Virus record (IMG/VR): IMGVR_UViG_2636415959_000002
DNA from: a virus
Lineage: Duplodnaviria; Heunggongvirae; Uroviricota; Caudoviricetes
DNA: 50,938 nucleotides
Strand: one strand, 5' to 3'
Positions 1,659 to 33,883 of this stretch are shown here, in pieces. Made by a program: the position numbers and the translations under genes. Under the pieces are notes generated by a model. That model saw only the letters and a list, made by a program, of their open reading frames with translations. It searched no databases and was not told the origin of the DNA. Within the stretch, counting starts at the first letter, position 1. Each line of letters opens with the position of its first letter.

Positions 1659-4130
1659 TTAAGAATCAGCCTGACTCGGGATCAGTTTTTGCCAGATAGC
1701 TGAAACGTATTTTGCCTGGTAACGGGCGTCATCAAGTGCATTATGGCGCTCACCTTCGAATGGAATAGCCGTTCTGGCATCGAAGTCTATGGCTTTCCCC
1801 AGCTCAACGATTGTGCGTACATCGCGATCGTTGTAGTAACGCCACGGGCAGGGGATTCCCTGCCGTTCGTATGAACGGCGCAAAATCGTGTTGTCGAAGT
1901 TGGCTCCATTTCCCCAGACATGAACAAAAAATTCACCGGAGTTTTCGTCGATAAATTCCCGCAATTGTAACAGTGCATCATCTAACGGGATTTCATCGGT
2001 CATAATGGCAGATTGCGCTTCGCGTGATTGCTTAAGCCACCATTTAATGGTGTCCCGATCAATGACTCCGCCAGCAGTTTCCAGATCGATAGTCTTACTA
2101 AATTCCGGTCCCATATCTCCGGTTTGCGGATCGAAAAATATTGCACCTATTGAGATGATCGGGGCATCAGGATTTTTTCCCATGGTTTCAAGGTCGATCA
2201 TTAGATGGTCACACGTCCTGCTGGTGGATGTGATTTCGTGATGACCGTTCACCTTAATTGAGTGATCTGCCGTCTCGCCAGTTTCATTATCGCTATTGTG
2301 ATGCTGATTGCCGCCAGTGTTCTCCTTGTGCTGATGCGCAGTGCCTTCCATTTCCTCCGGATCATTTTCCTGAACTTCAGGCTGATTCTCTCCATCGAAT
2401 ATTTCCTGGTATGTTGCGTCACCCATCACCGCACCACAATCAGGGCAGTTGCCGCCACCGCTATGACCGCAGGCGGTGCAGATCTTTTCCGGTTCCTGTT
2501 GCACTACTGGTTCAGGTTGTTTTGTTTCTGGCTCGTTTTGTTGCGTATTTGGGCTGTTTTGTTCCGCTTTCTGGTCGTTCTGTTCCGTTTCTTGCTGGTT
2601 CTGGTTCACAGAATCGCGGGTCTGGATCCCCTTAACCCATTTCGGATCATTCGGGTCGCTAATCCCTTCAACAAATTCACCACGTGATACTGCAAGCAGT
2701 TCATCGGCGTCAGGCTGGCTGATATTGGCTGCCTGCATAATTTTGTTTACTTCGTCAGCGGTAACTTTTACTGACCCTGGTTGTGCGGTCGTGTCAGATG
2801 CACCAGTATTTTGTTGTGAACCTGAGTATGTACCGTTTTTGCGGGCGAAATATTCTTCTTTCGTGATTTCAGTAGCCCCAGCAGACAGCGCCTTATCCAG
2901 ACCAGAAAGTTTGTTTGCGCGACCGTATTTTTCGCCATCCTTGTCGGTGAAGAGGAAGTAGAACGGCCCCTCACGTTCTACAGATGGTTCGACTTCCACT
3001 TTGCATTCGGTTTTTTCGTTGTCTGGAATTGCCGTTTCCACTGCATCAGTTTCTGGTACTGGCGACGAGAGAGTATCAGTTGCGCTCTGATTTGTTCCTT
3101 CATCTTCAAACACGCCCTTTGTAGTCAGGTATTCAGTAATGTATTTGTTCAGTGCCACAGGGTCTTTGTGAATGTCGATCGGACGTTCACGGACAAGGCC
3201 AAAAATAGTCTGGCGGTCGTAGCGAAGGGCATCAGGCTGTTTGCGCATTGATGCCGAGATACGCTTCCAGTCTTCGCGGTCGTTGTCGATAACTTCATTT
3301 TTTGCCCAGCGATGGATGCTGCCGTCAATGTTTCCGGCATCTACATCACCAGGCCAGAGAGCGTAGGCCAGTTCGTCATCCAGTGTTTTCCATGTCTGCT
3401 TGTATTCGCGATGAATGGCAGCAATGACCGGGCTGATTTTTCCTGTTGAATTTTCAGTGTACTGTTGATTGGCTCTGGCGCGGGCGAGATCAACAACAGA
3501 CGTGTATTTTCCGGTTTCCTTGCGTTCACCTTCGCGACGTTTTTTCCAGATGCGCATCTCTGCCTGAATTTCGGGCCATTTAGCACCAGGAATACATTTA
3601 TGCTTAACCCACCCAATGGCGTGCAACTTAAGCTCCGGATACATGGCGTTAACTTCTGGCATTTTCATCAACGCTTCAACGATATGTCCGTCGAATGTTG
3701 CCATGTCTTCCTGCAACAATTCCTGTGCGCTAATAACCATATCAACGGTGATGTTTTCACATGTGTCGAACTTAACCATGACAGCGTTCTGTACTTCAGG
3801 GGCCAGCTTGTCAAAAGTGACGTTCATCGGATCGGATTCAGTCTCAACCGGGACAAAAGAAGCAGACTCCTCATCCCAGCGGTTTTCCTGCATATATTCA
3901 GCATCCCATGAATCGAGGGCAGGGCGGGGTATGCCAGGTTTATCCTCGCAGACAATAAATTTATAAGCGCAGTCCTGAGCAGCCGGATAATGTTCCAGGA
4001 ACTGCCAGTGAAATTTTGCTCGAGCACGGCGTTCGTCGCCAGCTTCAATGGCTGTGGCTACAGCCACAGCGCCTTCTTCCCTTGTTGCCAGTTCGTCAGG
4101 AATAGCGGCGCAAATAAAGACTTTACTCAT
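1659..4130 (-). CDS. Prophage exonuclease with C-terminal DnaQ-like (DEDDh) 3'-5' exonuclease domain
   Basis: 823-aa ORF; C-terminal ~190 aa has Exo I (MIDLETMG), Exo II (HVWGNGANFD) and Exo III (HNALDDARYQ) motifs; long N-terminal region with a Cys4 ribbon (CTACGHSGGGNCPDCG) and a Gln/Glu-rich linker. Similar proteins are often labelled exodeoxyribonuclease VIII-like in prophages. Confidence 0.8.
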   Translation of the reverse strand: MSKVFICAAIPDELATREEGAVAVATAIEAGDERRARAKFHWQFLEHYPAAQDCAYKFIVCEDKPGIPRPALDSWDAEYMQENRWDEESASFVPVETESDPMNVTFDKLAPEVQNAVMVKFDTCENITVDMVISAQELLQEDMATFDGHIVEALMKMPEVNAMYPELKLHAIGWVKHKCIPGAKWPEIQAEMRIWKKRREGERKETGKYTSVVDLARARANQQYTENSTGKISPVIAAIHREYKQTWKTLDDELAYALWPGDVDAGNIDGSIHRWAKNEVIDNDREDWKRISASMRKQPDALRYDRQTIFGLVRERPIDIHKDPVALNKYITEYLTTKGVFEDEGTNQSATDTLSSPVPETDAVETAIPDNEKTECKVEVEPSVEREGPFYFLFTDKDGEKYGRANKLSGLDKALSAGATEITKEEYFARKNGTYSGSQQNTGASDTTAQPGSVKVTADEVNKIMQAANISQPDADELLAVSRGEFVEGISDPNDPKWVKGIQTRDSVNQNQQETEQNDQKAEQNSPNTQQNEPETKQPEPVVQQEPEKICTACGHSGGGNCPDCGAVMGDATYQEIFDGENQPEVQENDPEEMEGTAHQHKENTGGNQHHNSDNETGETADHSIKVNGHHEITSTSRTCDHLMIDLETMGKNPDAPIISIGAIFFDPQTGDMGPEFSKTIDLETAGGVIDRDTIKWWLKQSREAQSAIMTDEIPLDDALLQLREFIDENSGEFFVHVWGNGANFDNTILRRSYERQGIPCPWRYYNDRDVRTIVELGKAIDFDARTAIPFEGERHNALDDARYQAKYVSAIWQKLIPSQADS

Positions 4131-4705: not shown

Positions 4706-5086
4706 TGTTTTTGGTTTTAACTGTTCCGCGTGCGCTTAGCCGCATTCACCGCATCACAAAATTCACTTTAAAAACGGCGGCAGAGCAGTCACGGAGTAAA
4801 ACTGATACCGCCAAACGTCACCAGAAAATTGATAACAGAGGGCGTTGCAGCGGGGTTGTCACTTAAGCGTATGGTCAACCTGACAACTCGGTGTCCTCAA
4901 CGGGGAAGGAATAACCCCGCCATACTTACCGCCGCGCCATTTCGCGGGTTGCCACAACCGGAAGCGCACGGTCGAATTAAATTTAACGACACCGTACAGT
5001 GAGACGAACTTCGCCGTGCGCTTTCGTGTTGTGTGCCTGCTTTTAACCACGTCAGGCGAGGTGGTATCCTTAAAATCACCACAGTT

Positions 5087-5704
5087 TTAAGGATTCATTA
5101 AGCAATGTCGCAACCACCAATAAATCCGCTTAAGAACATGAAAATTGATTACTGGTATAAAGCGCTTACAGTTGTTGGCGCTGCGTTGTTTGTCTTTAAT
5201 GGAACGTCTTTTTTTGACAGATATCCCGTTGTTCCATTGGGTTTTTTGTCCTCCGGCATCTTTTTTATTGGTTTGGGGGAGTGGATTAATCACCCTCTCA
5301 AAGTGAGATTTATTGGTCCTGGAGTTTGGACTCGTGGATATAATCGTTCTTCGTGCGCACTCGGTATCATCTTCGACATACTTGGTTGTTTCCTGATTGT
5401 TACAGGAGTCGTCAAGTTCTTCTGATGTAAAACCGCAAATGGGGCACGTAACGGGAATTTTGAAAAGCGTTTCTCCGGGTTCCAGAACAAAATTTTCTGC
5501 GGTCTGATTTTGCTTCTCATATTTGTGCTCCGCGTCATTGTGAGAGCACATTCTTATTCTGAGTGCCTGTTTAAACTCACTGAAGCTGAGAGCTTCTTCG
5601 CCTTCGGCAAGACCTTCGAAGTATTCTTCGTAAGCCTTTTCCATGATTGTGTCGAAATCCATATCACTCACCTGAGTTTCTTTCCAGCCAGCGACGGGCA
5701 CCAT
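5087..5704 (-). CDS. Hypothetical acidic protein with CxxC motif (3' half may be non-coding)
   Basis: 205-aa ORF; N-terminal ~100 aa acidic with CPICGF; C-terminal half is low-complexity and exactly antisense to the plus-strand membrane ORF 5105..5425. Confidence 0.3.
   Translation of the reverse strand: MVPVAGWKETQVSDMDFDTIMEKAYEEYFEGLAEGEEALSFSEFKQALRIRMCSHNDAEHKYEKQNQTAENFVLEPGETLFKIPVTCPICGFTSEELDDSCNNQETTKYVEDDTECARRTIISTSPNSRTNKSHFERVINPLPQTNKKDAGGQKTQWNNGISVKKRRSIKDKQRSANNCKRFIPVINFHVLKRIYWWLRHCLMNP
5105..5425 (+). CDS. Small integral membrane protein (about 3 predicted TM segments)
   Basis: 106-aa ORF with three hydrophobic stretches (VVGAALFVFNGTSFF, LGFLSSGIFFIGLG, ALGIIFDILGCFLIVTGVV); AGGA upstream of the ATG; antisense to the 3' half of ORF 5087..5704, so only one of the two is likely real. 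Confidence 0.35.
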   Translation: MSQPPINPLKNMKIDYWYKALTVVGAALFVFNGTSFFDRYPVVPLGFLSSGIFFIGLGEWINHPLKVRFIGPGVWTRGYNRSSCALGIIFDILGCFLIVTGVVKFF

Positions 5705-5900
5705 TTTCGGTTTTAAACGTTTTGCTTTTGGTATACGTCATCGCGGTGAACGTACCGTCCTGGTTGGGGAACACGCCACATACCGGAGATTCGCTGTTGC
5801 CAAGATCGATAGTATCCATGCTGACCTCATTTCCCCTTAACGCCGGGGTAGCGGAACAAAAACCTGCTGCATAGTTATTAAAGTTGAACCCTGCCGTCAT
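5664..5900 (-). CDS. Hypothetical 78-aa protein, first gene of the leftward early operon
   Basis: ORF with GAGG about 9 nt upstream of the ATG; lies just downstream (leftward) of the operator-like repeats at about 6000-6045. Confidence 0.4.
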   Translation of the reverse strand: MTAGFNFNNYAAGFCSATPALRGNEVSMDTIDLGNSESPVCGVFPNQDGTFTAMTYTKSKTFKTENGARRWLERNSGE

Positions 5901-5994
5901 GTTCTTACGCCTCGGGCTGGCTACTTAACCCCTGACCACTGCCTGGTAACTCGAAGTATTGCCCTGCATTCTGTGGGGCGGGGTGGGTGGCAGG

Positions 5995-6045
5995 CATATA
6001 ATGTACTTTGCGTTCATTGTTGTAAAGTACTATTAGTACATTTTG
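5995..6045. promoter_or_regulatory. Operator-like repeats (OL-like) left of the repressor gene
   Basis: A/T-flanked GTAC motifs: aatgtacttt (~6001), aaagtactat and tagtacattt (~6024-6042) forming an imperfect palindrome; the same motif recurs in the repressor/cro intergenic region. Confidence 0.35.
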
Positions 6046-6116
6046 TGTGTAAAAAAATGAGATGGGATAAAGTGAAGCACAAACCCGGAGGAAGGCGCTA
6101 CCGGATTTATGCTGGT

Positions 6117-6536
6117 TTAAGAGGCTTTTTGTTTTTTCTTTCGTGCTAACTCTTCGTAAATTGCATTGTACTTCTGTTTTTTCTCTTCAAGAGTTTTTAA
6201 AAGTTCATCTGTCTCACTGTCAGGGAGCTCGTCCAGAAGGTCAATGATGATTTTTTGTCTTGGATTTAACTCCTGATAGAAACGTACCTGTCCACTTTCT
6301 TCTGTATCCTCTCCCAAAAGATAGGTTGGTGTTGTTCCTATTAGTGTTGCTAATTCCCTTAATTTCTCCCGGCGAGGAATTGTTTCGCCATTAAACCATT
6401 TGCTAACCGCTTTTGGTGTTAATTTCATTCGACGGGCAATTTCTGCCTGCCTTCCATGTTGTTCATAACCAGCGTTTTCACAGGCTAGCGCAAGCCTACT
6501 GGCGAACTCTTTACGCGCTTTATCTTCATGAACCAT
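6117..6536 (-). CDS. Prophage repressor, XRE-family HTH, non-LexA-like
   Basis: 139-aa ORF with N-terminal helix-turn-helix (QAEIARRMKLTPKAVSKWFNGETIP) and no S24 peptidase domain; divergent from a Cro-like gene. Confidence 0.75.
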   Translation of the reverse strand: MVHEDKARKEFASRLALACENAGYEQHGRQAEIARRMKLTPKAVSKWFNGETIPRREKLRELATLIGTTPTYLLGEDTEESGQVRFYQELNPRQKIIIDLLDELPDSETDELLKTLEEKKQKYNAIYEELARKKKQKAS

Positions 6537-6615
6537 AAGTTCAATGATATTCGCTCTTGAATGTACTGTCAGTTCTGTTATAGCATGTACTCAAAGTTCA
6601 CATTGTGAGGGTGAT
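6537..6615. promoter_or_regulatory. Divergent promoter/operator region (OR-like) between repressor and Cro-like gene
   Basis: 79-bp intergenic region with two copies of atgtact (~6561-6567 and ~6585-6591) matching the repeats at ~6000-6042. Confidence 0.5.
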
Positions 6616-6870
6616 ATGAACCAGAAAACACTTGAAGATGTAATCAAAACTGTTCGCGTTGCTGTTGTGGCCGACGTTTGTGGTGTCAGCCAAAGAGCAA
6701 TCTATAAATGGATGGATAACGGAAAATTGCCTCGCACAGAATATACCGGCGAAACAAATTACGCTGAAAAAATCGCTCTTGCATCAAACGGATTATTTTC
6801 TGCCGATGCAATTTTAACTATTGGCAGGAATAAAACTACTACGAAAAAGCTGATGGGAGTTGATTCATGA
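6616..6870 (+). CDS. Cro-like HTH DNA-binding protein (YdaS-like)
   Basis: 84 aa from internal start MNQKTLEDV with GAGGG RBS; HTH segment VADVCGVSQRAIYKWMDNGKLP; divergent from the repressor. Confidence 0.7.
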   Translation: MNQKTLEDVIKTVRVAVVADVCGVSQRAIYKWMDNGKLPRTEYTGETNYAEKIALASNGLFSADAILTIGRNKTTTKKLMGVDS

Positions 6871-7292
6871 AAATCAAGCATGAACACATCCGCATGGCGA
6901 TGAATGCCTGGGCGCATCCGGACGGCGAAAAAGTACCGGCTGCGAAAATTACCAAAGCGTATTTCGAGCTGGGAATGACGTTCCCGGAACTGTATGACGA
7001 CAGCCATCCGGAAGCCCTGGCTCGCAATACTCAGAAAATTTTCCGCTGGGTGGAGAAAGACACCCCTGATGCGGTTAAAAAAATTCAGGCGTTGTTACCA
7101 GCTATCGAAAAAGCAATGCCACCTCTGCTGGTGGCCCGAATGCGCAGTCATAGCTCAGCCTATTTTCGGGAACTAGTGGAGACGCGGGAACGACTGGTGA
7201 GAGACGCTGATGATTTTGTCGCAGTGGCGATCGCTGGTTTCAACCAGATGAATCGTGGTGGCCCTGCAGGAAATATTGTGGCTGTGCATTGA
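6867..7292 (+). CDS. ydaT: YdaT-like (CII-like) regulator of Rac-type prophages
   Basis: 141-aa ORF MKIKHEHIRMAMNAWAHPDGEKVPAAKITKAYFELGMTFPELYDD..., recalled as closely matching E. coli Rac YdaT; overlaps the stop of the Cro-like gene (operon coupling). Confidence 0.65.
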   Translation: MKIKHEHIRMAMNAWAHPDGEKVPAAKITKAYFELGMTFPELYDDSHPEALARNTQKIFRWVEKDTPDAVKKIQALLPAIEKAMPPLLVARMRSHSSAYFRELVETRERLVRDADDFVAVAIAGFNQMNRGGPAGNIVAVH

Positions 7293-7363
7293 CTCGCAAT
7301 ATTCATACCGGATCACTTCCGGCAATTTATGAGTAAAAAGATTCGGTATCAAAAGAGGTGAGT

Positions 7364-8434
7364 ATGGCTAACGCCTGGCTCAGATTATGGCATGACATGC
7401 CAAATGACCCTAAGTGGCGAACAATTGCCAGGGTGTCAGGGCAGCCAATTGCAACAGTGATGGCAGTGTATATCCACCTCTTGGTGAGCGCGTCACGAAA
7501 TGTCACGCGAGGTCACATTGATGTCACGACAGAAGATTTGGCAAGTGCGCTCGACGTGACAGAAGAGGTAATTGATTCAATTTTGCAGACGATGCAGGGG
7601 CGGGTACTTGATGGTGATTTAATCACTGGATGGGAAAAACGCCAGGTGCTTAAAGAGGACAATGGCAATATTTCGCAAACCGCAAAATCTCCTGCAGAGC
7701 GCAAGAGGGCGCAGCGAGAGAGGGAAAGAAAGCGGGAACAAAATGGCGATTGTCACGGCGCGTCACGAAATGTCACGCACATGTCACGACGAGTCACGAC
7801 AGATAAAGATACAGATAAAGATACAGATCAAGAAGATCAAAACACTATGGTCCATGGCGTAAAAAACGCCACGAACCAGGCAGGGGATGTTCAGACCGTC
7901 AATCTTGGTCAGCCAGCAGGCACGACACCGGAAGCCGATTCAGCGTATGCGCTGAAAGCCGATTCGGGCGCTGTGCAGCAGGTGATGACCGCAAGGCCGG
8001 AGCAATCACACCAACTGCAGCAGCCCGAAGCCGATTCCGCCATTCAGCGGGAAGCCGATCGGGTAGTCCCGGAAAACACCGGGCAGTCTGTGGGACGAGT
8101 GGATTATCCGGATGTGTTCGAACAGGTCTGGCGGGAGTACCCGTTGCGTGCCGGAGCAAACCCGAAGAAATCCGCTTTCAGTGCCTGGAAGGCCAGATTA
8201 CGCGAGGGGGTGCCACCAGAGGCCATGCTGGATGGCGTGAGGCGTTACGCAAGATACTTGGCGGCTACCGGGAAAACGGGAACGGAATTTGTTCAGCGAG
8301 CGACGACGTTTTTTGGACCGGACCGGAATTTTGAGAACCCCTGGTTGCTCCCGGTAAGCGGCACGAACAACCAGCGTTGTGTGAATCATATTTCTGAACC
8401 GGATAACGAAATTCCGCCGGGCTTCAGGGGGTAA
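7364..8434 (+). CDS. ydaU: Replication initiation protein, YdaU/DUF1376-like
   Basis: 356 aa from ATG with AAGAGG RBS; N-terminus MANAWLRLWHDMPNDPKWRTIARVSGQPI typical of the YdaU family; iteron arrays lie inside the coding sequence. Confidence 0.65.
   Translation: MANAWLRLWHDMPNDPKWRTIARVSGQPIATVMAVYIHLLVSASRNVTRGHIDVTTEDLASALDVTEEVIDSILQTMQGRVLDGDLITGWEKRQVLKEDNGNISQTAKSPAERKRAQRERERKREQNGDCHGASRNVTHMSRRVTTDKDTDKDTDQEDQNTMVHGVKNATNQAGDVQTVNLGQPAGTTPEADSAYALKADSGAVQQVMTARPEQSHQLQQPEADSAIQREADRVVPENTGQSVGRVDYPDVFEQVWREYPLRAGANPKKSAFSAWKARLREGVPPEAMLDGVRRYARYLAATGKTGTEFVQRATTFFGPDRNFENPWLLPVSGTNNQRCVNHISEPDNEIPPGFRG
7490..7560 (+). repeat. Iteron cluster 1: GTCACG/GTCACA hexamers at about 10-bp phasing
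   Basis: gtcacg at ~7492, 7502, 7523, gtcaca at ~7512, and an inverted copy cgtgac at ~7555. Confidence 0.5.
7750..7832 (+). repeat. Iteron cluster 2 (five GTCACG at 10-11 bp spacing) followed by a duplicated 12-mer, putative replication origin
   Basis: gtcacg at ~7752, 7762, 7772, 7783, 7793; then agataaagatac x2 (~7801-7824) and an A-rich tail; the 19-mer cgtcacgaaatgtcacgc is shared with cluster 1. Confidence 0.5.
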
Positions 8435-9159: not shown

Positions 9160-10551
9160 TTATGCTTCATGTTGCTTTTTGAGATCGCTTCTAGCATAGC
9201 TCCACTCAATAATGTTGTCGGGTCGTTGCTGATCGAAAAGGATACGGGATTCAATACCATTACCTAAAAAGCTGGTATTCCCATCTACGTAAGAAGCTAT
9301 CCCTTGTGAACCAACACGAAGAATATTTTCTAATGGCTGCTTTGTTCTTGCTGCATCGCTAAGGAGATATAAACCCGGGTACGTTTTGTTAGCACGGTGA
9401 AAAAAAAGTTCATTGTCAAAACACATGACGATGATTATTTGTCCCGACATGAGATCGGAGAGCATTTCAGTTGGCAGATGCAAACTCATAAATGGTCGAG
9501 ACAAAGGGTCAAAGAATGAATCATTTATATTCACAACAGGGCTTTTTATACCGAGACTATCCATCCATCCATTGAAGGCAACAAAGCCCATTTCAGAATC
9601 ACGGTACATACCTAAGAACAAACATTCATCAATAGTATCAATTGCCCAATTTTTTCCTCCGCGAATAATCTCCCACATTTTAACTAAGCGGTGGGTATAA
9701 AATTCAGACGGATGATCTATCTCATTGATTTTAACTTTAGACTGATGAAAGTTGTCAAAGCCCTCGCCAGTATTAATCGCCTCCAGAACATTCATGCCAC
9801 GAATGATTTGCCTTTTTATGCGATTAAATTGCTTAACATCATTATCAGGCATATTGTTAATGAAGTTTTCTTCAAAGTGCGGACATTCTGAGATAACAGA
9901 AAATTCAGCAGCTTCATAAAGCTCATTATTCTTTTCACCTGTTTTAACTTCCACGAGCTGGAAGCCATCCAGTAGATTAAAGGTGACTAAATCTCCCACA
10001 TGAACAAATGTGCTCATGTCAGAGACAATCGCTACGGAGTGTTTGTCCTGGTTGATAAGATCGGCTGCGACCATAGAATCAATTATGTTATCTTCTGATA
10101 GATTGTCATTGCTTGCATTAATAGGTAAACGCCGCAAACTAGAGTGTTCTTCATCAAGAATGCTCCAAATTATTGAGTCAATACAACGGCGAAGAATAAG
10201 AATTTCAAATTTTTTTAAACTTATTTCATCAATACACTTTTCTTTATTTTCTTTATCCTTGTTTCGATGGTGCTCTTTTTTTTCAGTTTCCAATCTTTTT
10301 ATATCTCTCAGCCGAATAATAATCTCAAAAGATATGATTTTTTGTGAGTCTTTCCAATTTTTGAGACAGGTTTCATACTCTGCAAGAAAATCCTCATCAT
10401 TGGAAGGTAGTTCTTGAATTGGATTCCCTCCCCTTATCATTTTGGCAAGTGCATGCATTAAAGATACATAATGAGGCGATAAAATTGTCCAAAACTTCCT
10501 AAACGGTTTGTACTTTTCAAGAAAAGTTGACTCATCAGTATAATTCATCAT
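9160..10551 (-). CDS. Uncharacterised 463-aa protein, downstream partner of the AbiH-like gene; possible PD-(D/E)xK nuclease-like core
   Basis: ORF 9160..10557; likely ATG at 10551 (MMNYTDEST) with GAGG upstream; AT-rich codon usage; segment FVHVGDLVTFNLLDGFQLVEVKTGEKN fits D-x13-E-x-K; no Walker motif or other signature recognised. Confidence 0.6.
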   Translation of the reverse strand: MMNYTDESTFLEKYKPFRKFWTILSPHYVSLMHALAKMIRGGNPIQELPSNDEDFLAEYETCLKNWKDSQKIISFEIIIRLRDIKRLETEKKEHHRNKDKENKEKCIDEISLKKFEILILRRCIDSIIWSILDEEHSSLRRLPINASNDNLSEDNIIDSMVAADLINQDKHSVAIVSDMSTFVHVGDLVTFNLLDGFQLVEVKTGEKNNELYEAAEFSVISECPHFEENFINNMPDNDVKQFNRIKRQIIRGMNVLEAINTGEGFDNFHQSKVKINEIDHPSEFYTHRLVKMWEIIRGGKNWAIDTIDECLFLGMYRDSEMGFVAFNGWMDSLGIKSPVVNINDSFFDPLSRPFMSLHLPTEMLSDLMSGQIIIVMCFDNELFFHRANKTYPGLYLLSDAARTKQPLENILRVGSQGIASYVDGNTSFLGNGIESRILFDQQRPDNIIEWSYARSDLKKQHEA

Positions 10552-10640
10552 AACCAAACCTCATTCCTCTTATCTATTTTCCTCAAGGTATAAAATACCA
10601 GCCTTTTTTACATAATTATAGTTATAATATGAAGTCTCAT

Positions 10641-11510
10641 TCAGATATCTTCATACTGTACGTAAGAAATATTTGAGCCTCTGATACCATAATCTTCTAA
10701 ACTGCCTGATTTTTTCTCACCTCTATATAAAGCAACTATCCATCGAGCATTTTCTTGGATGCTTTTATTTATTTCAGTAAAGTATTCACCGTCAACTTCG
10801 GCGAGCGAGTGGCCTAAAACGATGACCTCGTCCACATTTTTAAGCGATGAGAAAAAAACGTTTTCTTCTTTAATTATGTCTTCGCTGGGCTTGAATGTAT
10901 TACCGAAGTATTCGTTTATTCTGTCGTATGCCTCTGCTATTCTTGTATCTTGATCCGGTCCTATATATGGATTTAGTGACTTTTCCACCCTAAAACTATG
11001 ACCAAGTATGAGATCGTCATCGTAACTACAATTGCCGTGAATATGTATGATTTGCTCGTCTGGAACGGCATAGATCTGCTGCAAGGTATTTGTATAATTA
11101 AATGAAAAATAGATGCTTTCTCTTGGTATGGGCGGGATGTATTGCTTAGGATTGTAAGCATCGGCTATGTTAATCCCTTTAACCCAATCAGCGAATTGCT
11201 CCTTCAAACGAGCTGACAGCATTTGTGTGATTTTATTTACTTCATATTGGTAATCGTGATGATAAGCATCGCTCCAATCATCGGTATTGTATGAAGCCAA
11301 AAATATCTCACTGTTTTGAAGGATAAGCTCATAATCAATTTCACCTAAAGCATTTTCTAACTCATTCCACTCGTCCCCAGCAGGAATGTATTCTTCTATC
11401 GCGTCATATAGATCTTGGTCATTTTTTTCTACATACGACTTAAAGTGCTTGTATCCTGTTGGTAAGCCATGACGCATGTCAAATCCATTTCCTATTATGT
11501 AAAGCCTCAT
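10641..11510 (-). CDS. AbiH-family (abortive infection) protein
   Basis: 289 aa from internal ATG (MRLYIIGNGFDMRHGLPTGYKHF) with AAGGGA RBS; the IIGNGFD-x-HGL-x-T-Y motif is the N-terminal signature I recall for the AbiH family; AT-rich. Confidence 0.7.
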   Translation of the reverse strand: MRLYIIGNGFDMRHGLPTGYKHFKSYVEKNDQDLYDAIEEYIPAGDEWNELENALGEIDYELILQNSEIFLASYNTDDWSDAYHHDYQYEVNKITQMLSARLKEQFADWVKGINIADAYNPKQYIPPIPRESIYFSFNYTNTLQQIYAVPDEQIIHIHGNCSYDDDLILGHSFRVEKSLNPYIGPDQDTRIAEAYDRINEYFGNTFKPSEDIIKEENVFFSSLKNVDEVIVLGHSLAEVDGEYFTEINKSIQENARWIVALYRGEKKSGSLEDYGIRGSNISYVQYEDI

Positions 11511-11968
11511 TGTTTTTCCCTTAGTCGAATTGTATAAAAATACTAACATGGCCTGCTCCACGTTGACTACTATCCCCTCCTTTGAGTAATGCCTTCATCA
11601 GATGTAACAACATTTGCGAGCTTCCACAGTTCGCTCAAAGCGGACTAGAAGGTTAGCTTGCGTCGGACTTGGCGTATTTAAAGAAGTGCTGGTGGAGACT
11701 GGTTGTTGTGTTCCATTTCTACAGAACAAAATCACAGAAACTATACCCAATAGTTATATTGAATCAATGATGAGACAGCCTCATATTTATCAGGACTGGT
11801 GTACGTCCAATACAGGAGGTTGTCGTGCTGGTTCTCAAATGTGCGCTAGCTATTGCGGCTGTAATGGCAATTTATTGTCTTGCTGTTGTTCTTACGGATC
11901 GCCTTTCTGATTGATTTTATATTGGCGAGGTGACGTGAGTTAAGTAGAATTGCTGCGGGTGCTTGAGG

Positions 11969-12004
11969 CTATCTGCCTCAGGCATGAACACCAAAGGCAG
12001 ATAG
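11969..12004 (+). promoter_or_regulatory. Perfect 10-bp inverted repeat in the hokD 5' leader (probable mRNA fold)
   Basis: ctatctgcct ... aggcagatag separated by a 16-nt loop, about 120 nt upstream of the hokD ATG. Confidence 0.3.
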
Positions 12005-12125
12005 AGAAAAGCCCCAGTTAACATTACGCGTCCTGCAAGACGCTTAACATTAATCTGAGGCCAATTTCATGCTAGACACATGTAGGTTAGCCTCTTACGT
12101 GCCGAAAGGCAAGGAGAAGCAGGCT

Positions 12126-12281
12126 ATGAAGCAGCAAAAGGCGATGTTAATCGCCCTGATCGTCATCTGTTTAACCGTCATAGTGACGGCACTGGTAACG
12201 AGGAAAGACCTCTGCGAGGTACGAATCCGAACCGGCCAGACGGAGGTCGCTGTCTTCACAGCTTACGAACCTGAGGAGTAA
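12126..12281 (+). CDS. hokD: Hok-family type I toxin (HokD/RelF-like), 51 aa
   Basis: MKQQKAMLIALIVICLTVIVTALVTRKDLCEVRIRTGQTEVAVFTAYEPEE: single TM helix plus conserved Hok C-terminal motif; AGGAG RBS; in-frame upstream extension (ORF from 12069) is reminiscent of mok. Confidence 0.85.
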   Translation: MKQQKAMLIALIVICLTVIVTALVTRKDLCEVRIRTGQTEVAVFTAYEPEE

Positions 12282-12288
12282 GAGACCA

Positions 12289-12374
12289 GGCGAGGGAGAA
12301 ATCCCTCGCCACCTCTGATGTGTCAGGCATCCTCAATGCACCCGCACTTAACCCGCTTCGGCGGGTTTATTTTA
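12289..12374 (+). terminator. Two 3' hairpins after hokD, the second followed by a T-run (rho-independent terminator)
   Basis: ggcgaggga-gaaa-tccctcgcc (~12289-12310) and acccgc-ttcg-gcgggt followed by ttatttta (~12351-12374). Confidence 0.45.
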
Positions 12375-12628
12375 TCTGTAAATATTTTTATAAAAATAAT
12401 GCCCACACACAGCATAAAACAAAAAGTATCACAGATAAAAAAGGAGCGTAATGTGCAGATTTGTTGTTTTCCATATTTACTCACTTTAACATAATCAATA
12501 TTGATATGGTTGTTGTTTTGGTGGTTTCAAACGAGATGTTATGGTGATCTGGTAAAATTGCATAACATTAAAATTTAATTTATCTAATCGCTTTTAATAA
12601 TAAGCGTTGTGTTTATCCCAACAATCTG

Positions 12629-13018
12629 TTGTTTGACTTTTATTCCATTAATGTAGGGGCTTTACACTGGAACCAGTTTATTTATACTTTATACGCCAGC
12701 CTGAACAACTGGCACCTGCTGCGCCAGCAGAGACAACCGATGGCGCACGATACCAAATTACACAATTCTGATGATTCTGCCGTCTTTGCCAGCAGGTGCG
12801 GACGGCGTTTTCATGCATTCAAATCGGACTGGTTCCAGCATCCACCATGCACTGAAGAGCAGGCTGAATGGATAATTCAGTGTTACCGCAGGCGCGGATA
12901 CGAGGTTAAAAAAGCCCTTAGCCTCGACTACCGTCACTGGATAATCTCAGTCAGATTGCCTTACTCCGAACGCCCACCGCGTCCGTCCCGTACATTCCAG
13001 CAACGCCTCTGGAGGTAA
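12629..13018 (+). CDS. Hypothetical protein (position corresponds to rem of Qin-type prophages)
   Basis: 129-aa ORF ending 2 nt before the ydfU-like start; true start may be an internal Met; no motif recognised. Confidence 0.4.
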   Translation: MFDFYSINVGALHWNQFIYTLYASLNNWHLLRQQRQPMAHDTKLHNSDDSAVFASRCGRRFHAFKSDWFQHPPCTEEQAEWIIQCYRRRGYEVKKALSLDYRHWIISVRLPYSERPPRPSRTFQQRLWR

Positions 13019-13019
13019 C

Positions 13020-14069
13020 GTGCGGGTATTACTTCGACCTGTTCTGGTACCGGAACTCGGGCTGGTGGTCGTTAAGCCGGGCCGTGAATCCATGCCGGTA
13101 TTCCACAATACCCGGGTACTGGTGGAGCCGGAACCGAAAAGCATGCGTAATCTGCCGTCCGGGGTCGTTCCTGCCGTTCGCCAGCCGCTGGTGGAAGACA
13201 AAACATTGCTGCCGTTTTTCAGTAACACACGGGTAATTCGTGCTGCTGGTGGTGCTGGTGCATTGTCTGACTGGCTGTTGCGCCATATTAAATCCTGCCA
13301 GTGGCCACACGGCGATTATCATCACAGCGAAACCGTTATTCACCGATATGGTACCGGCGCAATGGTGTTGTGCTGGCACTGCGACAACCAGCTGCGTGAC
13401 CAGACATCCGAATCACTCGAGCAACTTGCTCATCAAAACCTGTCAGCATGGATGATTGACGTCATCGGTCACGCAATAAGCGGTACGCAGGAGCGTGAAT
13501 TATCTCTGGCTGAATTATCCTGGTGGGCGGTCCGCAATCAGCTGGCGGACGCGCTACCGGAAGCGGTATTACGTCGCTCGCTGGGATTACCAGCGGAAAA
13601 AATCTGCTCGGTGTACCGCGAAAGCGACATCGTACCGGGAGAGCAGACCGCCACCAGCATATTGAAACAGCGCACAAAAAATCTTGCACCGTTGCCTCAC
13701 GCCCACCAGCAACAAAACCCATCACAGGAAAAGACGGTGGTAAGCATCACCGTTGATCCAGAGTCTCCGGAATCTTTCATGAAGCTGCCTAAACGTCACC
13801 GGTGGGTTAAGGAGAAATACACACGCTGGGTTAAGACACAGCCGTGTGCTTGCTGCGGTATGCCAGCCGACGATCCGCATCATCTGATTGGTCACGGGCA
13901 GGGCGGAATGGGAACAAAAGCACATGATCTCTTTGTGTTGCCTTTGTGCAGAAAGCATCACAACGAGCTGCATACGGATACAGTGGCATTTGAAGAGAAG
14001 TATGGCTCCCAACTGGAGCTGATATTTCGTTTTATCGATCGCGCGCTGGCAATTGGCGTACTGGCGTAA
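13020..14069 (+). CDS. ydfU: DUF968/YdfU-like protein with Cys/His-rich C-terminal motif
   Basis: 349-aa ORF (GTG start after GGAGG); C-terminal CACCGMPADDPHHLIGHGQGG...CRKHHNELH; size and position match YdfU of Qin-type prophages (recalled). Confidence 0.65.
   Translation: MRVLLRPVLVPELGLVVVKPGRESMPVFHNTRVLVEPEPKSMRNLPSGVVPAVRQPLVEDKTLLPFFSNTRVIRAAGGAGALSDWLLRHIKSCQWPHGDYHHSETVIHRYGTGAMVLCWHCDNQLRDQTSESLEQLAHQNLSAWMIDVIGHAISGTQERELSLAELSWWAVRNQLADALPEAVLRRSLGLPAEKICSVYRESDIVPGEQTATSILKQRTKNLAPLPHAHQQQNPSQEKTVVSITVDPESPESFMKLPKRHRWVKEKYTRWVKTQPCACCGMPADDPHHLIGHGQGGMGTKAHDLFVLPLCRKHHNELHTDTVAFEEKYGSQLELIFRFIDRALAIGVLA

Positions 14070-21475: not shown

Positions 21476-21501
<26 letters not shown>
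20956..21501 (+). pseudogene. nu1: Terminase small subunit Nu1 interrupted by an in-frame amber (TAG) codon
   Basis: ORFs 20956..21234 and 21277..21501 are in the same frame and together reconstitute a 181-codon lambda Nu1-like protein (MEVNKKQLADIFGASIRTIQNWQEQGMP ... LSEYIEQSG); single TAG at 21232-21234. Confidence 0.85.
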
Positions 21502-25182
<3,681 letters not shown>

Positions 25183-25202
<20 letters not shown>

Positions 25203-31311: not shown

Positions 31312-33883
31312 ACCGGTAGGCGATCTGGTCGTTGATTTGAGTCTGGATGCGGCCAGATTTGACGAGCAGATGGCCAGAGTCAGGCGTCATTTTTCCGGTA
31401 CGGAAAGTGATGCGAAAAAAACAGCGGCAGTCGTTGAACAGTCGATGAACCGGCAGGCGCTGGCTGCACAGAAAGCGGGAATTTCCGTCGGGCAGTATAA
31501 AGCCGCCATGCGTATGCTGCCTGCGCAGTTCACTGACGTGGCCACGCAGCTTGCCGGCGGGCAAAGTCCGTGGCTGATCCTGCTGCAACAGGGGGGTCAG
31601 GTGAAGGACTCCTTCGGCGGGATGATCCCCATGTTCCGGGGGCTTGCCGGTGCGATCACCCTGCCGATGGTGGGGGCTACCTCGCTGGCGGTGGCGACCG
31701 GAGCGCTGGCGTATGCCTGGTATCAGGGCAACTCAACCCTGTCCGATTTCAACAAAACGCTGGTCCTTTCCGGCAATCAGGCGGGACTGACGGCAGATCG
31801 TATGCTGGTCCTGTCCAGAGCCGGGCAGGCGGCAGGGCTGACGTTTAACCAGACCAGCGAGTCACTCAGCGCACTGGTTAAGGCGGGGGTAAGCGGTGAG
31901 GCTCAGATTGCGTCCATCAGCCAGAGTGTGGCGCGTTTCTCCTCTGCATCCGGCGTGGAGGTGGACAAGGTCGCTGAAGCCTTCGGGAAGCTGACCACAG
32001 ACCCGACGTCGGGGCTGACGGCGATGGCACGCCAGTTCCATAACGTGACGGCGGAGCAGATTGCGTATGTTGCTCAGTTGCAGCGTTCCGGCGATGAAGC
32101 CGGGGCATTGCAGGCGGCGAACGAGGCCGCAACGAAAGGGTTTGATGACCAGACCCGCCGCCTGAAAGAGAACATGGGCACGCTGGAGACCTGGGCAGAC
32201 AGGACAGCACGGGCATTCAAATCCATGTGGGATTCGGTGCTGGATATTGGTCGCCCGGACACTGCCCAGGGAATGCTGGAGAAAGCAGAAAAGGCTTTTG
32301 ATGAGGCGGACAAAAAATGGCAGTGGTATCAGAGCCGGAGCCACCGGCGCGGTAAAACCTCAGCATTTCTTGCCAATCTCCGGGGAGCATGGGAGGACAG
32401 AGCGAATGCGCAACTTGGGCTTTCAGCCGCCACGTTGCAGGCCGATCTTGAAAAGGCCAGAGAGATGGCAGCAAAGGACTGGGCCGAGTCTGAGGCATCA
32501 CGGCTGAAATATACCGAAGAGGCGCAGAAGGCTTACGAACGCCTGCAGACGCCGCTGGAGAAATATACCGCCCGTCAGGAAGAACTGAACAAGGCACTGA
32601 AGGACGGGAAAATTCTGCAGGCAGATTACAACACGCTGATGGCGGCGGCGAAAAAGGACTATGAAGCGACGCTGAAAAAGCCGAAACAGTCCGGCGTGAA
32701 GGTGTCTGCGGGCGATCGTCAGGAAGACAGTGCTCATGCTGCCCTGCTGACGCTTCAGGCAGAACTCCGGACGCTGGAGAAGCATGCCGGAGCAAATGAG
32801 AAAATCAGCCAGCAGCGCCGGGATTTGTGGAAGGCGGAGAGTCAGTTCGCGGTACTGGAGGAGGCGGCGCAACGTCGCCAGCTGTCTGCACAGGAGAAAT
32901 CCCTGCTGGCGCATAAAGATGAGACGCTGGAGTACAAACGCCAGCTGGCTGCACTTGGCGACAAGGTTACGTATCAGGAGCGCCTGAACGCGCTGGCGCA
33001 GCAGGCGGATAAATTCGCACAGCAGCAACGGGCAAAACGGGCCGCTATTGATGCGAAAAGCCGGGGGCTGACTGACCGGCAGGCAGAACGGGAAGCCACG
33101 GAACAGCGCCTGAAGGAACAGTATGGCGATAATCCTCTGGCGCTGAATAACGTCATGTCAGAGCAGAAAAAGACCTGGGCGGCTGAAGACCTGCTTCGCG
33201 GGAACTGGATGGCAGGCCTCAGGTCCGGCTGGAGCGAGTGGAAAGAGAGTGCCACGGACAGTATGTCGCAGGTTAAAAGTGCAGCCACGCAGACCTTTGA
33301 TGGTATTGCGCAGAATATGGCGGCGATGCTGACCGGCAGTGAACAGAACTGGCGCAGCTTCACCCGCTCCGTGCTGTCCATGATGACAGAAATTCTGCTT
33401 AAGCAGGCAATGGTGGGGATTGTCGGGAGTATCGGCAGCGCCATTGGCGGGGCTGTTGGTGGCGGCGCATCCGCGTCAGGCGGTACAGCCATTCAGGCCG
33501 CTGCGGCGAAATTCCATTTTGCGACCGGGGGATTTACGGGAACCGGCGGCAAATATGAGCCAGCGGGGATTGTTCACCGTGGTGAATTTGTCTTCACGAA
33601 GGAGGCAACCAGCCGGATTGGTGTCGGCAACCTGTACCGCCTGATGCGGGGCTATGCGGAAGGTGGTTATGTGGGCGGTGCCGGAAGTCCGGCGCAGATG
33701 CGGCGGGCTGAAGGCATTAATTTTAATCAGAACAATCACGTGGTGATTCAGAACGACGGTACGAATGGTCTGCCAGGTCCACAGATGATGAAGGCGGTGT
33801 ATGACATGGCCCGCAAGGGTGCCCGTGATGAAATCCAGGCACAGATGCGCGATGGTGGTCTGTTCTCCGGAGGTGGACGATGA
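31304..33883 (+). CDS. H: Tail tape-measure protein H
   Basis: 859 aa, lambda gpH-like; coiled-coil-rich centre and Gly-rich C-terminus. Confidence 0.95.
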   Translation: MAEPVGDLVVDLSLDAARFDEQMARVRRHFSGTESDAKKTAAVVEQSMNRQALAAQKAGISVGQYKAAMRMLPAQFTDVATQLAGGQSPWLILLQQGGQVKDSFGGMIPMFRGLAGAITLPMVGATSLAVATGALAYAWYQGNSTLSDFNKTLVLSGNQAGLTADRMLVLSRAGQAAGLTFNQTSESLSALVKAGVSGEAQIASISQSVARFSSASGVEVDKVAEAFGKLTTDPTSGLTAMARQFHNVTAEQIAYVAQLQRSGDEAGALQAANEAATKGFDDQTRRLKENMGTLETWADRTARAFKSMWDSVLDIGRPDTAQGMLEKAEKAFDEADKKWQWYQSRSHRRGKTSAFLANLRGAWEDRANAQLGLSAATLQADLEKAREMAAKDWAESEASRLKYTEEAQKAYERLQTPLEKYTARQEELNKALKDGKILQADYNTLMAAAKKDYEATLKKPKQSGVKVSAGDRQEDSAHAALLTLQAELRTLEKHAGANEKISQQRRDLWKAESQFAVLEEAAQRRQLSAQEKSLLAHKDETLEYKRQLAALGDKVTYQERLNALAQQADKFAQQQRAKRAAIDAKSRGLTDRQAEREATEQRLKEQYGDNPLALNNVMSEQKKTWAAEDLLRGNWMAGLRSGWSEWKESATDSMSQVKSAATQTFDGIAQNMAAMLTGSEQNWRSFTRSVLSMMTEILLKQAMVGIVGSIGSAIGGAVGGGASASGGTAIQAAAAKFHFATGGFTGTGGKYEPAGIVHRGEFVFTKEATSRIGVGNLYRLMRGYAEGGYVGGAGSPAQMRRAEGINFNQNNHVVIQNDGTNGLPGPQMMKAVYDMARKGARDEIQAQMRDGGLFSGGGR

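Follow-up and report, generated by a model that had tools for sequence, protein, structure and literature searches.

A probable immunity switch of a Qin-site lambdoid prophage with predicted operators of the HK022 specificity group and a DicA-like short repressor

Repeats built around the tetranucleotide GTAC lie on both sides of a repressor gene in an E. coli lambdoid prophage. This arrangement raises the question of whether the repeats are the operators of an immunity switch and, if so, what sequence the repressor would recognize. The prophage is contained in the 50,938-nucleotide stretch of DNA analysed here in full (the window). It adjoins rspB, the site that holds the Qin prophage in strain K-12, and its left arm, read from the minus strand, carries ydfA, ydfB, the DicF RNA (4775-4826), dicB, ydfD and an exonuclease gene in synteny with Qin. 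The label “Rac-like” applied by the first-pass annotation is thus better replaced by Qin-like, given the location next to rspB and the shared ydfA, dicF, dicB and ydfD. A 1-kb query spanning the operator/repressor region is 100% identical to strain FDAARGOS_1058, and at least 80% of it is found in 1046 of 5426 complete E. coli genomes (about 19%), making this a common cassette. The repressor itself recurs at 99-100% identity in four genomes deposited as phages, namely Tritos and three vB_EcoS isolates.

The repeats are as originally described. WWGTACW is present at 6001, 6025 and 6034, the last two copies forming a palindrome, and ATGTACT occurs twice, at 6561 and 6585, within the 79-bp gap (6537-6615) separating the repressor gene from a cro-like gene that starts at 6616. 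The repressor gene (6536..6117, minus strand) lies between the two sets. Across the window, GTAC is rarer than base composition predicts (118 copies against about 198); despite this scarcity, five copies are packed into two 39-bp stretches at the locus. WWGTACW is matched 14 times in the whole 50.9 kb and ATGTACT 4 times; 6 and 3 of these matches, respectively, lie in the interval 6001-6591, and all three occurrences of ATGTACT-N4-GTTC in the window fall at this locus. The clustering is well above chance.

Closer inspection of the sequences around each GTAC pointed to a longer element. Every copy is paired with a GTWC or GWAC exactly 5 bp away, the dyad axis lying between the two, and the other half of the GTAC-bearing elements often reads GTTC or GAAC. 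Extended palindromes centred on each GTAC were also considered; the flanks proved asymmetric, and a 15-bp dyad was preferred. By these criteria the repeats are the half-site cores of five predicted operators, 15-bp imperfect palindromes of the form TGWAC-N5-GTWCA. With up to one mismatch allowed, this pattern has 17 matches in the window, compared to 4.3 +/- 2.1 in dinucleotide-preserving shuffles. The GTAC copies noticed at the outset therefore stand; the 7-mer centred on GTAC does not, GTAC being the core of one half-site of the dyad. The right-hand set must also be enlarged, from two sites to three, to take in one without GTAC that had been overlooked (6529-6543). The five predicted operators, with their scores and ranks in the scan described below, are:

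6002-6016, OL1, TGTACTTTGCGTTCA, overlapping the PL -10 hexamer; weakest of the five, 11.1 bits, rank 6
6026-6040, OL2, AGTACTATTAGTACA, abutting and overlapping the PL -35 hexamer; 19.2 bits, rank 2
6529-6543, OR3, TGAACCATAAGTTCA, without GTAC; 21.8 bits, rank 1
6562-6576, OR2, TGTACTGTCAGTTCT, filling the PR spacer and overlapping the PRM -35 hexamer; 15.4 bits, rank 4
6586-6600, OR1, TGTACTCAAAGTTCA, just downstream from the PR -10 hexamer, over the expected PR start; 17.0 bits, rank 3

Measured between centres, OL1 and OL2 are 24 bp apart, OR3 and OR2 33 bp, and OR2 and OR1 24 bp. The dyad centre of OR3 coincides with the A of the repressor ATG (6536), which places this site just outside the 79-bp gap.

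The operators of phage HK022 provided an independent measure. The HK022 reference (GenBank X16093) carries two oL and three oR sequences annotated as “potential repressor binding sites”. A weight matrix was derived from these five sites alone, without any window sequence, and used to score the approximately 51,000 positions of the window; 100 Markov-1 sequences of the same length served as null, their best score averaging 11.5 bits. The matrix places the five window sites at ranks 1, 2, 3, 4 and 6. Four of them score between 15.4 and 21.8 bits, well clear of the null; OL1, at 11.1 bits against a null mean best of 11.5, is a moderate match only. In a scan of the interval 5600-7400 with the same matrix, no hit of 3 bits or more was found beyond the five sites, and neither of two additional elements reported for HK022 (PMC8053113), OL3 (53 bp from OL2) and OFR (downstream from cro), has a counterpart there.

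The correspondence with HK022 goes site by site. The oL sequences at 2201-2215 (TGTACTTAAAGTTCA) and 2225-2239 (AGTACCAATAGTACA) are the homologues of OL1 and OL2, respectively. On the right, the oR at 3000-3014 (TGAACCATAAGTTCA) is identical to OR3, while those at 3033-3047 (TGTACTATCAGTTCC) and 3057-3071 (TGAACCATAAGTTCA) are homologous to OR2 and OR1. Start-to-start spacings in HK022 (24 bp on the left, 33 and 24 bp on the right) are exactly those of the window, and there too OR3 sits on the ATG. In the aligned DNA, mean column identity is 74% for the OL and 83% for the OR region. The pL and pR hexamers annotated in HK022 coincide with TTTACA/CATTAT and TTGAAT/TATAGC in the window. The promoter assignments, with a hairpin found at the end of the repressor gene, are as follows:

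5998..6026, minus strand, PL, equivalent to dicBp: -35 TTTACA (6026-6021), 17-nt spacer, -10 CATTAT (6003-5998)
6544..6572, minus strand, PRM-like promoter: -35 CTGACA (6572-6567), 17-nt spacer, -10 TATCAT (6549-6544)
6557..6584, plus strand, PR: -35 TTGAAT (6557-6562), 16-nt spacer, -10 TATAGC (6579-6584)
6076..6113, minus strand, RNA hairpin starting 4 nt past the repressor stop codon: folding energy -19.5 kcal/mol, z = -4.1

PL (9 of 12 consensus matches in the promoter scan) aligns with both the -35 and the -10 of HK022 pL and is predicted to drive ydfA, dicF, dicB, ydfD and the exonuclease gene. The scan also called the PRM-like promoter, with 10 matches out of 12. PR was placed by homology, each column aligning with the -35 (TTGACT) and -10 (CATAAT) of HK022 pR; its spacer contains a TG at 6576-6577. 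The final T of a -10 hexamer is usually essential, and PR falls below the scan threshold because its -10 ends without one. This hexamer varies among close relatives. The PRM -10 ends only 7 nt before the repressor ATG and no Shine-Dalgarno sequence is present, so that the repressor mRNA, from its presumed start site, is probably leaderless. The lambda repressor mRNA is likewise leaderless. By 5′ RACE, the same was found for the analogous PaaR2 repressor of CP-933P (PMC8630535). As for the hairpin, none of 200 shuffled sequences folds equally well; it lacks a clean U-tract and was not called by the terminator scan. On the strength of its folding energy, it may act as a terminator or insulator shielding the PL operon from PRM read-through.

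The proteins encoded at the locus tell a similar story on the DNA-binding side. Three genes are relevant:

6117..6536, minus strand, repressor gene: 139 aa, Pfam HTH_3
6616..6870, plus strand, cro-like gene: 84 aa, annotated as YdaS-like or HTH regulator
6867..7292, plus strand, ydaT-family gene: Pfam YdaT_toxin

Between residues 4 and 102 the repressor is 47% identical to HK022 CI, and the recognition helices of the two proteins (TPKAVSKWFNGE and TPKAISKWFNGE, respectively) differ by a single V/I change. The window version of the helix is shared with relatives in E. coli, Salmonella, Klebsiella and Citrobacter. In tblastn searches of phage records, the first 100 residues or so show 60-71% identity to repressors from several Klebsiella, Citrobacter and Salmonella phages and 51% to the CI protein of 933W/phi24B. 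From about residue 88 onward, the likeness to HK022 CI is lost and the protein resembles instead the C-terminal part of K-12 DicA (29% identity along 112 aa that take in the C-terminal helices, E = 5e-15). The translated HK022 CI has 235 residues and ends in a self-cleaving S24 domain, whereas the window protein has a DicA-like helical C-terminus. In the latter, Pfam detects HTH families only, and the S24 block of the HK022, Klebsiella and Citrobacter proteins is missing from the alignment. In an AlphaFold model (mean pLDDT 82.5), five helices make up the HTH domain (residues 1 to about 76), and a disordered linker (77-87) leads to C-terminal helices at 92-103 and 106-138. Sequence and fold searches of the PDB returned generic XRE/HTH hits, P22 C2 being closest by sequence; SinR-like and SPbeta-repressor-like architectures gave weak matches (E about 1e-2), and nothing specific emerged for the C-terminal region. 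Judging from these comparisons, the repressor is an HTH domain of the HK022 CI type joined to a two-helix, DicA-like C-terminal region.

The cro-like gene product and HK022 Cro share 60% identity along 73 aa (E = 1e-33); its Pfam match, HTH_17, falls below the curated cut-off. The next gene in the window is of the ydaT type, a difference from HK022, as is the Qin-like left arm with dicF and dicB where HK022 carries nun. The YdaT-family protein matches PHROG 163, “CII-like transcriptional activator” (E = 3.5e-45), which fits with experiments showing that YdaT of CP-933P acts like CII (PMC8630535); by analogy, it is likely a CII analogue.

The locus thus displays the features of a lambdoid layout, with divergent repressor and cro genes, a short operator-bearing gap between them and a second operator set at the leftward promoter. 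The likeness to the OL-cI-OR arrangement of lambda had been noted before; the relationship to HK022, a characterised lambdoid phage, is one of homology, not merely analogy. The further claim that the switch is intact holds at the level of sequence, as open reading frames, operators and promoters all appear to be in place.

Absence of the repeats from homologous immunity regions had been named beforehand as grounds for refutation; the outcome favours the interpretation, the sites being kept across genera. The comparison took in Tritos, whose repressor is 100% identical, two more loci from E. coli (88-89%), loci in Salmonella (62-65%), and those of Klebsiella phage 2b, Citrobacter phage Omnitron and the P22-like Salmonella phage S9-5. 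In every one of them the matrix picks out three sites whose centres lie exactly 0, -33 and -57 bp from the start codon of the repressor. An OL pair with the 24-bp spacing follows on the far side of the repressor gene, except in the Klebsiella phage, where none was found within the 3.3 kb covered. In the relatives, the proximal OL site is fused to a TTTACA -35 hexamer and the distal one overlaps a CATnAT-like -10; counting loci, the fusion of TTTACA to OL2 and the overlap of the -10 with OL1 are kept in eight. The spacing between a TAnnnT -10 and the ATG is unchanged in the closer relatives and shorter by about 1 nt in the Salmonella phage SI8 and in phi24B (933W type), two loci where the OR positions are kept with weaker matches. 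In 26 distinct sites, G2, A4 and C5 never vary, nor do their mirror positions; position 3 is split about evenly between A and T, and the central N5 carries almost no information.

Constraint at shorter range was assessed with 80 IMG/VR viral loci whose DNA-binding domains are identical, a sample suited to this purpose and not to deep divergence. Half-site columns are variable in 4 of 40 cases, compared to 45 of 118 among the remaining non-coding positions (Fisher p = 7e-4, a value that is indicative only, as the haplotypes are related). The most variable columns are those of the OL spacers.

Comparison with a prophage of different immunity allowed the borders of the exchangeable segment to be drawn. 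Homology to this prophage (E. coli Dog168) ends at window position 5988 and resumes at 6856, delimiting the following unit:

5989..6855, immunity cassette, holding both operator sets, the repressor gene and the cro-like gene

Many genomes match the flanks of this cassette only. Within it, the Dog168 version shares with the window just the part coding for the repressor C-terminus (window 6118-6233, 75% nucleotide identity). Dog168 has a repeat of its own, TACCCATRGGTA, present twice 25 bp apart at OL and twice 24 bp apart at OR, and once more, as a weaker match, close to where the repressor gene starts. At the same site in K-12, Qin has repeats of the TGTTAG...CTAACA type in both the OL and the OR positions. 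As other cassettes carry another motif at both positions, both operator sets travel with the DNA-binding domain. This co-variation is the strongest evidence obtainable from sequence alone that the operators are the targets of that domain.

Taken together, the data argue for an immunity switch belonging to a Qin-site lambdoid prophage, with operators predicted to be bound as members of the HK022 specificity group. We give this reading a probability of roughly 85%. It was weighed against three others. A fortuitous resemblance, fostered by the base composition of an AT-rich promoter region, might be suspected from the 12 one-mismatch matches to TGWAC-N5-GTWCA that lie outside the immunity region, themselves in excess of the shuffles. 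This excess suggests that TGAAC counts are inflated by codon usage (CTG-AAC). Yet four sites of at least 15.4 bits within 600 bp, when the best in 51 kb of null sequence averages 11.5, together with identical positions and spacings across genera and a motif that co-varies with the DNA-binding domain, leave accident with practically no credit; conservation refutes it. Scarcely better placed is the view that the operators are 7-bp WWGTACW elements centred on GTAC, three on the left and two on the right. The five GTAC copies are real and clustered, and the tetranucleotide is itself palindromic; yet the flanks are asymmetric about it, a GTWC or GWAC partner is found exactly 5 bp off each time, and half-site position 3 accepts A or T to about the same extent. 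The model fails altogether on 6529-6543, the top-scoring and universally conserved site, which has no GTAC, and it departs from HK022 and 933W, whose operators are defined as 15-bp dyads. We consider it very unlikely.

The remaining alternative, that an HK022-like layout was inherited by a switch now dead through loss of the original C-terminal domain, is the least improbable of the three and still unlikely. In its favour, the repressor lacks the S24 domain present in the closest relatives of its DNA-binding domain, no antirepressor or LexA box was found in the window, and many Qin-site prophages are cryptic. A dead switch is however difficult to reconcile with half-sites under purifying constraint among the 80 near-identical loci, or with the recurrence of the short repressor form in E. 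coli and Salmonella along with intact operators. The same holds for the occurrence of this repressor in the four phage-deposited genomes and of the cassette in nearly a fifth of complete E. coli genomes. Moreover, short repressors of the DicA type are known to be functional.

Three characterized systems help to place the switch of the HK022 specificity group proposed here. In 933W, studied by the Koudelka laboratory, the repressor recognizes five operators with G at half-site position 2, A or T at position 3 and invariant A and C at positions 4 and 5 (PMC3317979). Affinity is more than 3-fold higher with T than with A at position 3, and lysines 42 and 46, both conserved in the window repressor, make base contacts (PMC3317979). 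Like the window, 933W/phi24B has three OR and two OL sites, OR3 on the ATG, and no OL3. Its DNA-binding domain is about 51% identical to that of the window repressor, with S41 in place of P41 in the recognition helix (SSKGVSKWFNAE); the HK022-derived matrix gives poorer matches for its operators, and the S24 domain that the window protein lacks is present in its repressor.

The second system, DicA/DicC/dicBp of K-12 Qin, shares with the window the chromosomal site and left-arm synteny (ydfA, ydfB, dicF, dicB, ydfD). DicA, too, is a short repressor that lacks an S24 domain and has a C-terminal region homologous to that of the window protein, and its operators, reported in the dicA-dicC gap and at dicBp, parallel OR and OL. 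They read TGTTAG...CTAACA, a specificity unlike that of the window, and DicA is antagonised by the Rem antirepressor, of which the window has no homologue. Finally, the PaaR2/YdaS/YdaT module of CP-933P resembles the window in its CI-, Cro- and CII-like logic, its YdaS/YdaT-type right-arm genes, its leaderless repressor mRNA and its repeats common to the intergenic region and the PL promoter; it differs in having an unrelated repressor, GTTTAGTAA repeats and a toxin-antitoxin pair after the repressor gene (PMC8630535). On these comparisons, the most fitting description is of a Qin-site immunity cassette that combines HK022 specificity with a short repressor of the DicA type. The operator type is ordinary, having been described already for HK022; the modest twist is a repressor without the self-cleaving tail.

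From this arrangement we infer how the switch would work: what binds and in which order the sites fill, where the promoters start, and whether autoregulation is positive or negative. The 139-aa repressor, as a dimer, would bind the five 15-bp operators through its HTH domain. With OL1 and OL2 occupied, PL would be blocked and the ydfA-dicF-dicB-ydfD-exonuclease operon silent; occupancy of OR1 and OR2 would cover the start and spacer of PR and keep cro and the CII-like ydaT off. OR3, lying just downstream from the PRM -10, would shut off repressor synthesis at high levels of repressor or Cro, negative autoregulation being likely for a site centred on the repressor start. The Cro homologue would use the same sites with the opposite order of preference. 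By analogy to 933W, GTAC half-sites should be bound more tightly than GAAC ones, making OL2 (GTAC in both halves) a strong site and OR3 (GAAC in both halves) a weak one.

Two aspects may set this switch apart from its better-known counterparts. The centre of OR2 lies at -33 from the presumed PRM start, and the lambda counterpart is centred at -42. Because of this offset, positive autoregulation of the lambda type cannot be assumed, and occupancy of OR2 may instead repress PRM. The second aspect concerns interactions between dimers. HK022 CI binds cooperatively to adjacent operators and loops OL to OR (PMC8053113); the binding work on this repressor is that of Carlson and Little (1993), cited in the same paper. 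As the window repressor has an unrelated C-terminal region, pairwise cooperativity and looping between OL and OR may not carry over from HK022 CI. Operator binding by the homologous 933W repressor is not cooperative (PMC3317979).

Lack of the S24 domain, which in CI repressors of the HK022/lambda type serves dimerisation and cooperativity as well as RecA-stimulated cleavage, makes such self-cleavage unlikely. DicA, the nearest relative in architecture, is inactivated by Rem, and the Gifsy repressors by LexA-controlled antirepressors (bioRxiv 10.1101/2023.04.14.536235). No Rem homologue was found in the window by tblastn. The exact LexA box, CTGT-N8-ACAG, has a sole match in the window, at 33374, which is chance level; a looser scan gave three hits, and those checked lie inside coding sequence. 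A 92-aa open reading frame at the position equivalent to rem (12740-13018) was considered as a candidate antirepressor; it belongs to a PHROG without an assigned function that is present in phages of many immunity types and not tied to this one, and so offers no evidence for such a role.

We tentatively propose, at somewhat less than even odds, that the short, non-cleavable repressor keeps HK022 specificity, that carriers are immune to HK022-type phages and that the switch is uncoupled from RecA cleavage. If this were so, the carriers, about 19% of complete E. coli genomes, would resist HK022-type phages, among them the Salmonella, Klebsiella and Citrobacter relatives that share the recognition helix. 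One DNA-binding domain and its operator set would then have been recombined onto two unrelated C-terminal modules, S24 and DicA-like, with unchanged geometry, and the 24-bp pairing of sites would either be superfluous or have been restored by an oligomerisation domain of unrelated origin.

These findings open no new category. Their main use is in annotation, as they give precise positions for the operators and promoters of an immunity type carried by around one in five complete E. coli genomes, in a switch that governs the cell-division inhibitors DicF and DicB. The swap of the C-terminal module and the predicted cross-immunity with phages of the HK022 type are of modest interest. The self-cleaving and the DicA-like C-termini, on the same DNA-binding domain and operators, make up a natural domain-swap pair, which could show how far the behaviour of lambdoid switches rests on cooperativity and on the mode of induction.

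One match to the operator consensus lies distant from the immunity region. The sequence TGAACTGTTCGTTCA, at 24047-24061, fits the consensus perfectly and scores 15.1 bits with the matrix built on the five HK022 operators, ranking fifth in the window. This operator-like site stands alone, with no partner at 24 bp (the spacing of the OL pair), and is most likely, for this reason, a chance occurrence. When one mismatch to TGWAC-N5-GTWCA is allowed, 12 matches are found outside the immunity region; dinucleotide-preserving shuffles of the whole window predict 4.3 +/- 2.1 for its entire length. Codon usage (CTG-AAC) is a possible source of the excess.

The isolated site falls within a 533-aa ORF (23601-25202), probably the portal gene given its placement after an ORF of terminase size (641 aa, 21476-23401). 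The latter is unbroken in the window, whereas the terminase is annotated as frameshifted in the otherwise matching prophage of FDAARGOS_1058 (NZ_CP065970.1), the strain 100% identical over the 1-kb query. Co-linearity between the window and FDAARGOS_1058 is therefore incomplete.

Further features of the window are:

4775-4826, minus strand: DicF sRNA (Rfam), downstream of the PL-like promoter
about 9160-11550 (11261-13650 in locus L001), minus strand: abortive-infection gene of the AbiH family, with a hypothetical gene of 463 aa
11957-12131, plus strand: sok antisense RNA (Rfam), adjoining hokD
12740-13018: 92-aa ORF between hokD and ydfU, PHROG 1212 (unknown function)

The AbiH-family gene and its 463-aa companion, placed between the replication genes and hokD, look like a defence-gene moron. 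The 92-aa ORF holds the place that in K-12 Qin is occupied by rem, the gene for the antirepressor of DicA. Some phage records name this ORF "toxin to Rem"; the ORF does not resemble Rem itself.

Closer to the switch, a strong RNA hairpin (6076-6113, minus strand; -19.5 kcal/mol, z = -4.1) directly follows the repressor stop codon and lacks a clean U-tract. The segment holding it is an insertion in the window relative to HK022. An insertion in the Salmonella relatives (L004 2917-3851, L005 2956-3896), made up of a gene for a HigB toxin and a neighbouring HTH gene that likely encodes its antitoxin, separates the short repressor gene from the OL pair, which thereby lies roughly 900 bp away from the stop codon of the repressor. 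The position of this insertion is the same as that of rexAB in lambda and of paaA2-parE2 in CP-933P.

Finally, E. coli Dog168 carries a different immunity cassette (locus L018, 400-445 and 900-980) between flanks identical to those of the window. The operator motif of this cassette is a distinct one, TACCCATRGGTA, present at the OL position and again at the OR position. The two repressors have only the C-terminal coding part in common (75% nucleotide identity to window 6118-6233). Such a pattern points to recombination at the border between the DNA-binding and C-terminal domains of the repressor.
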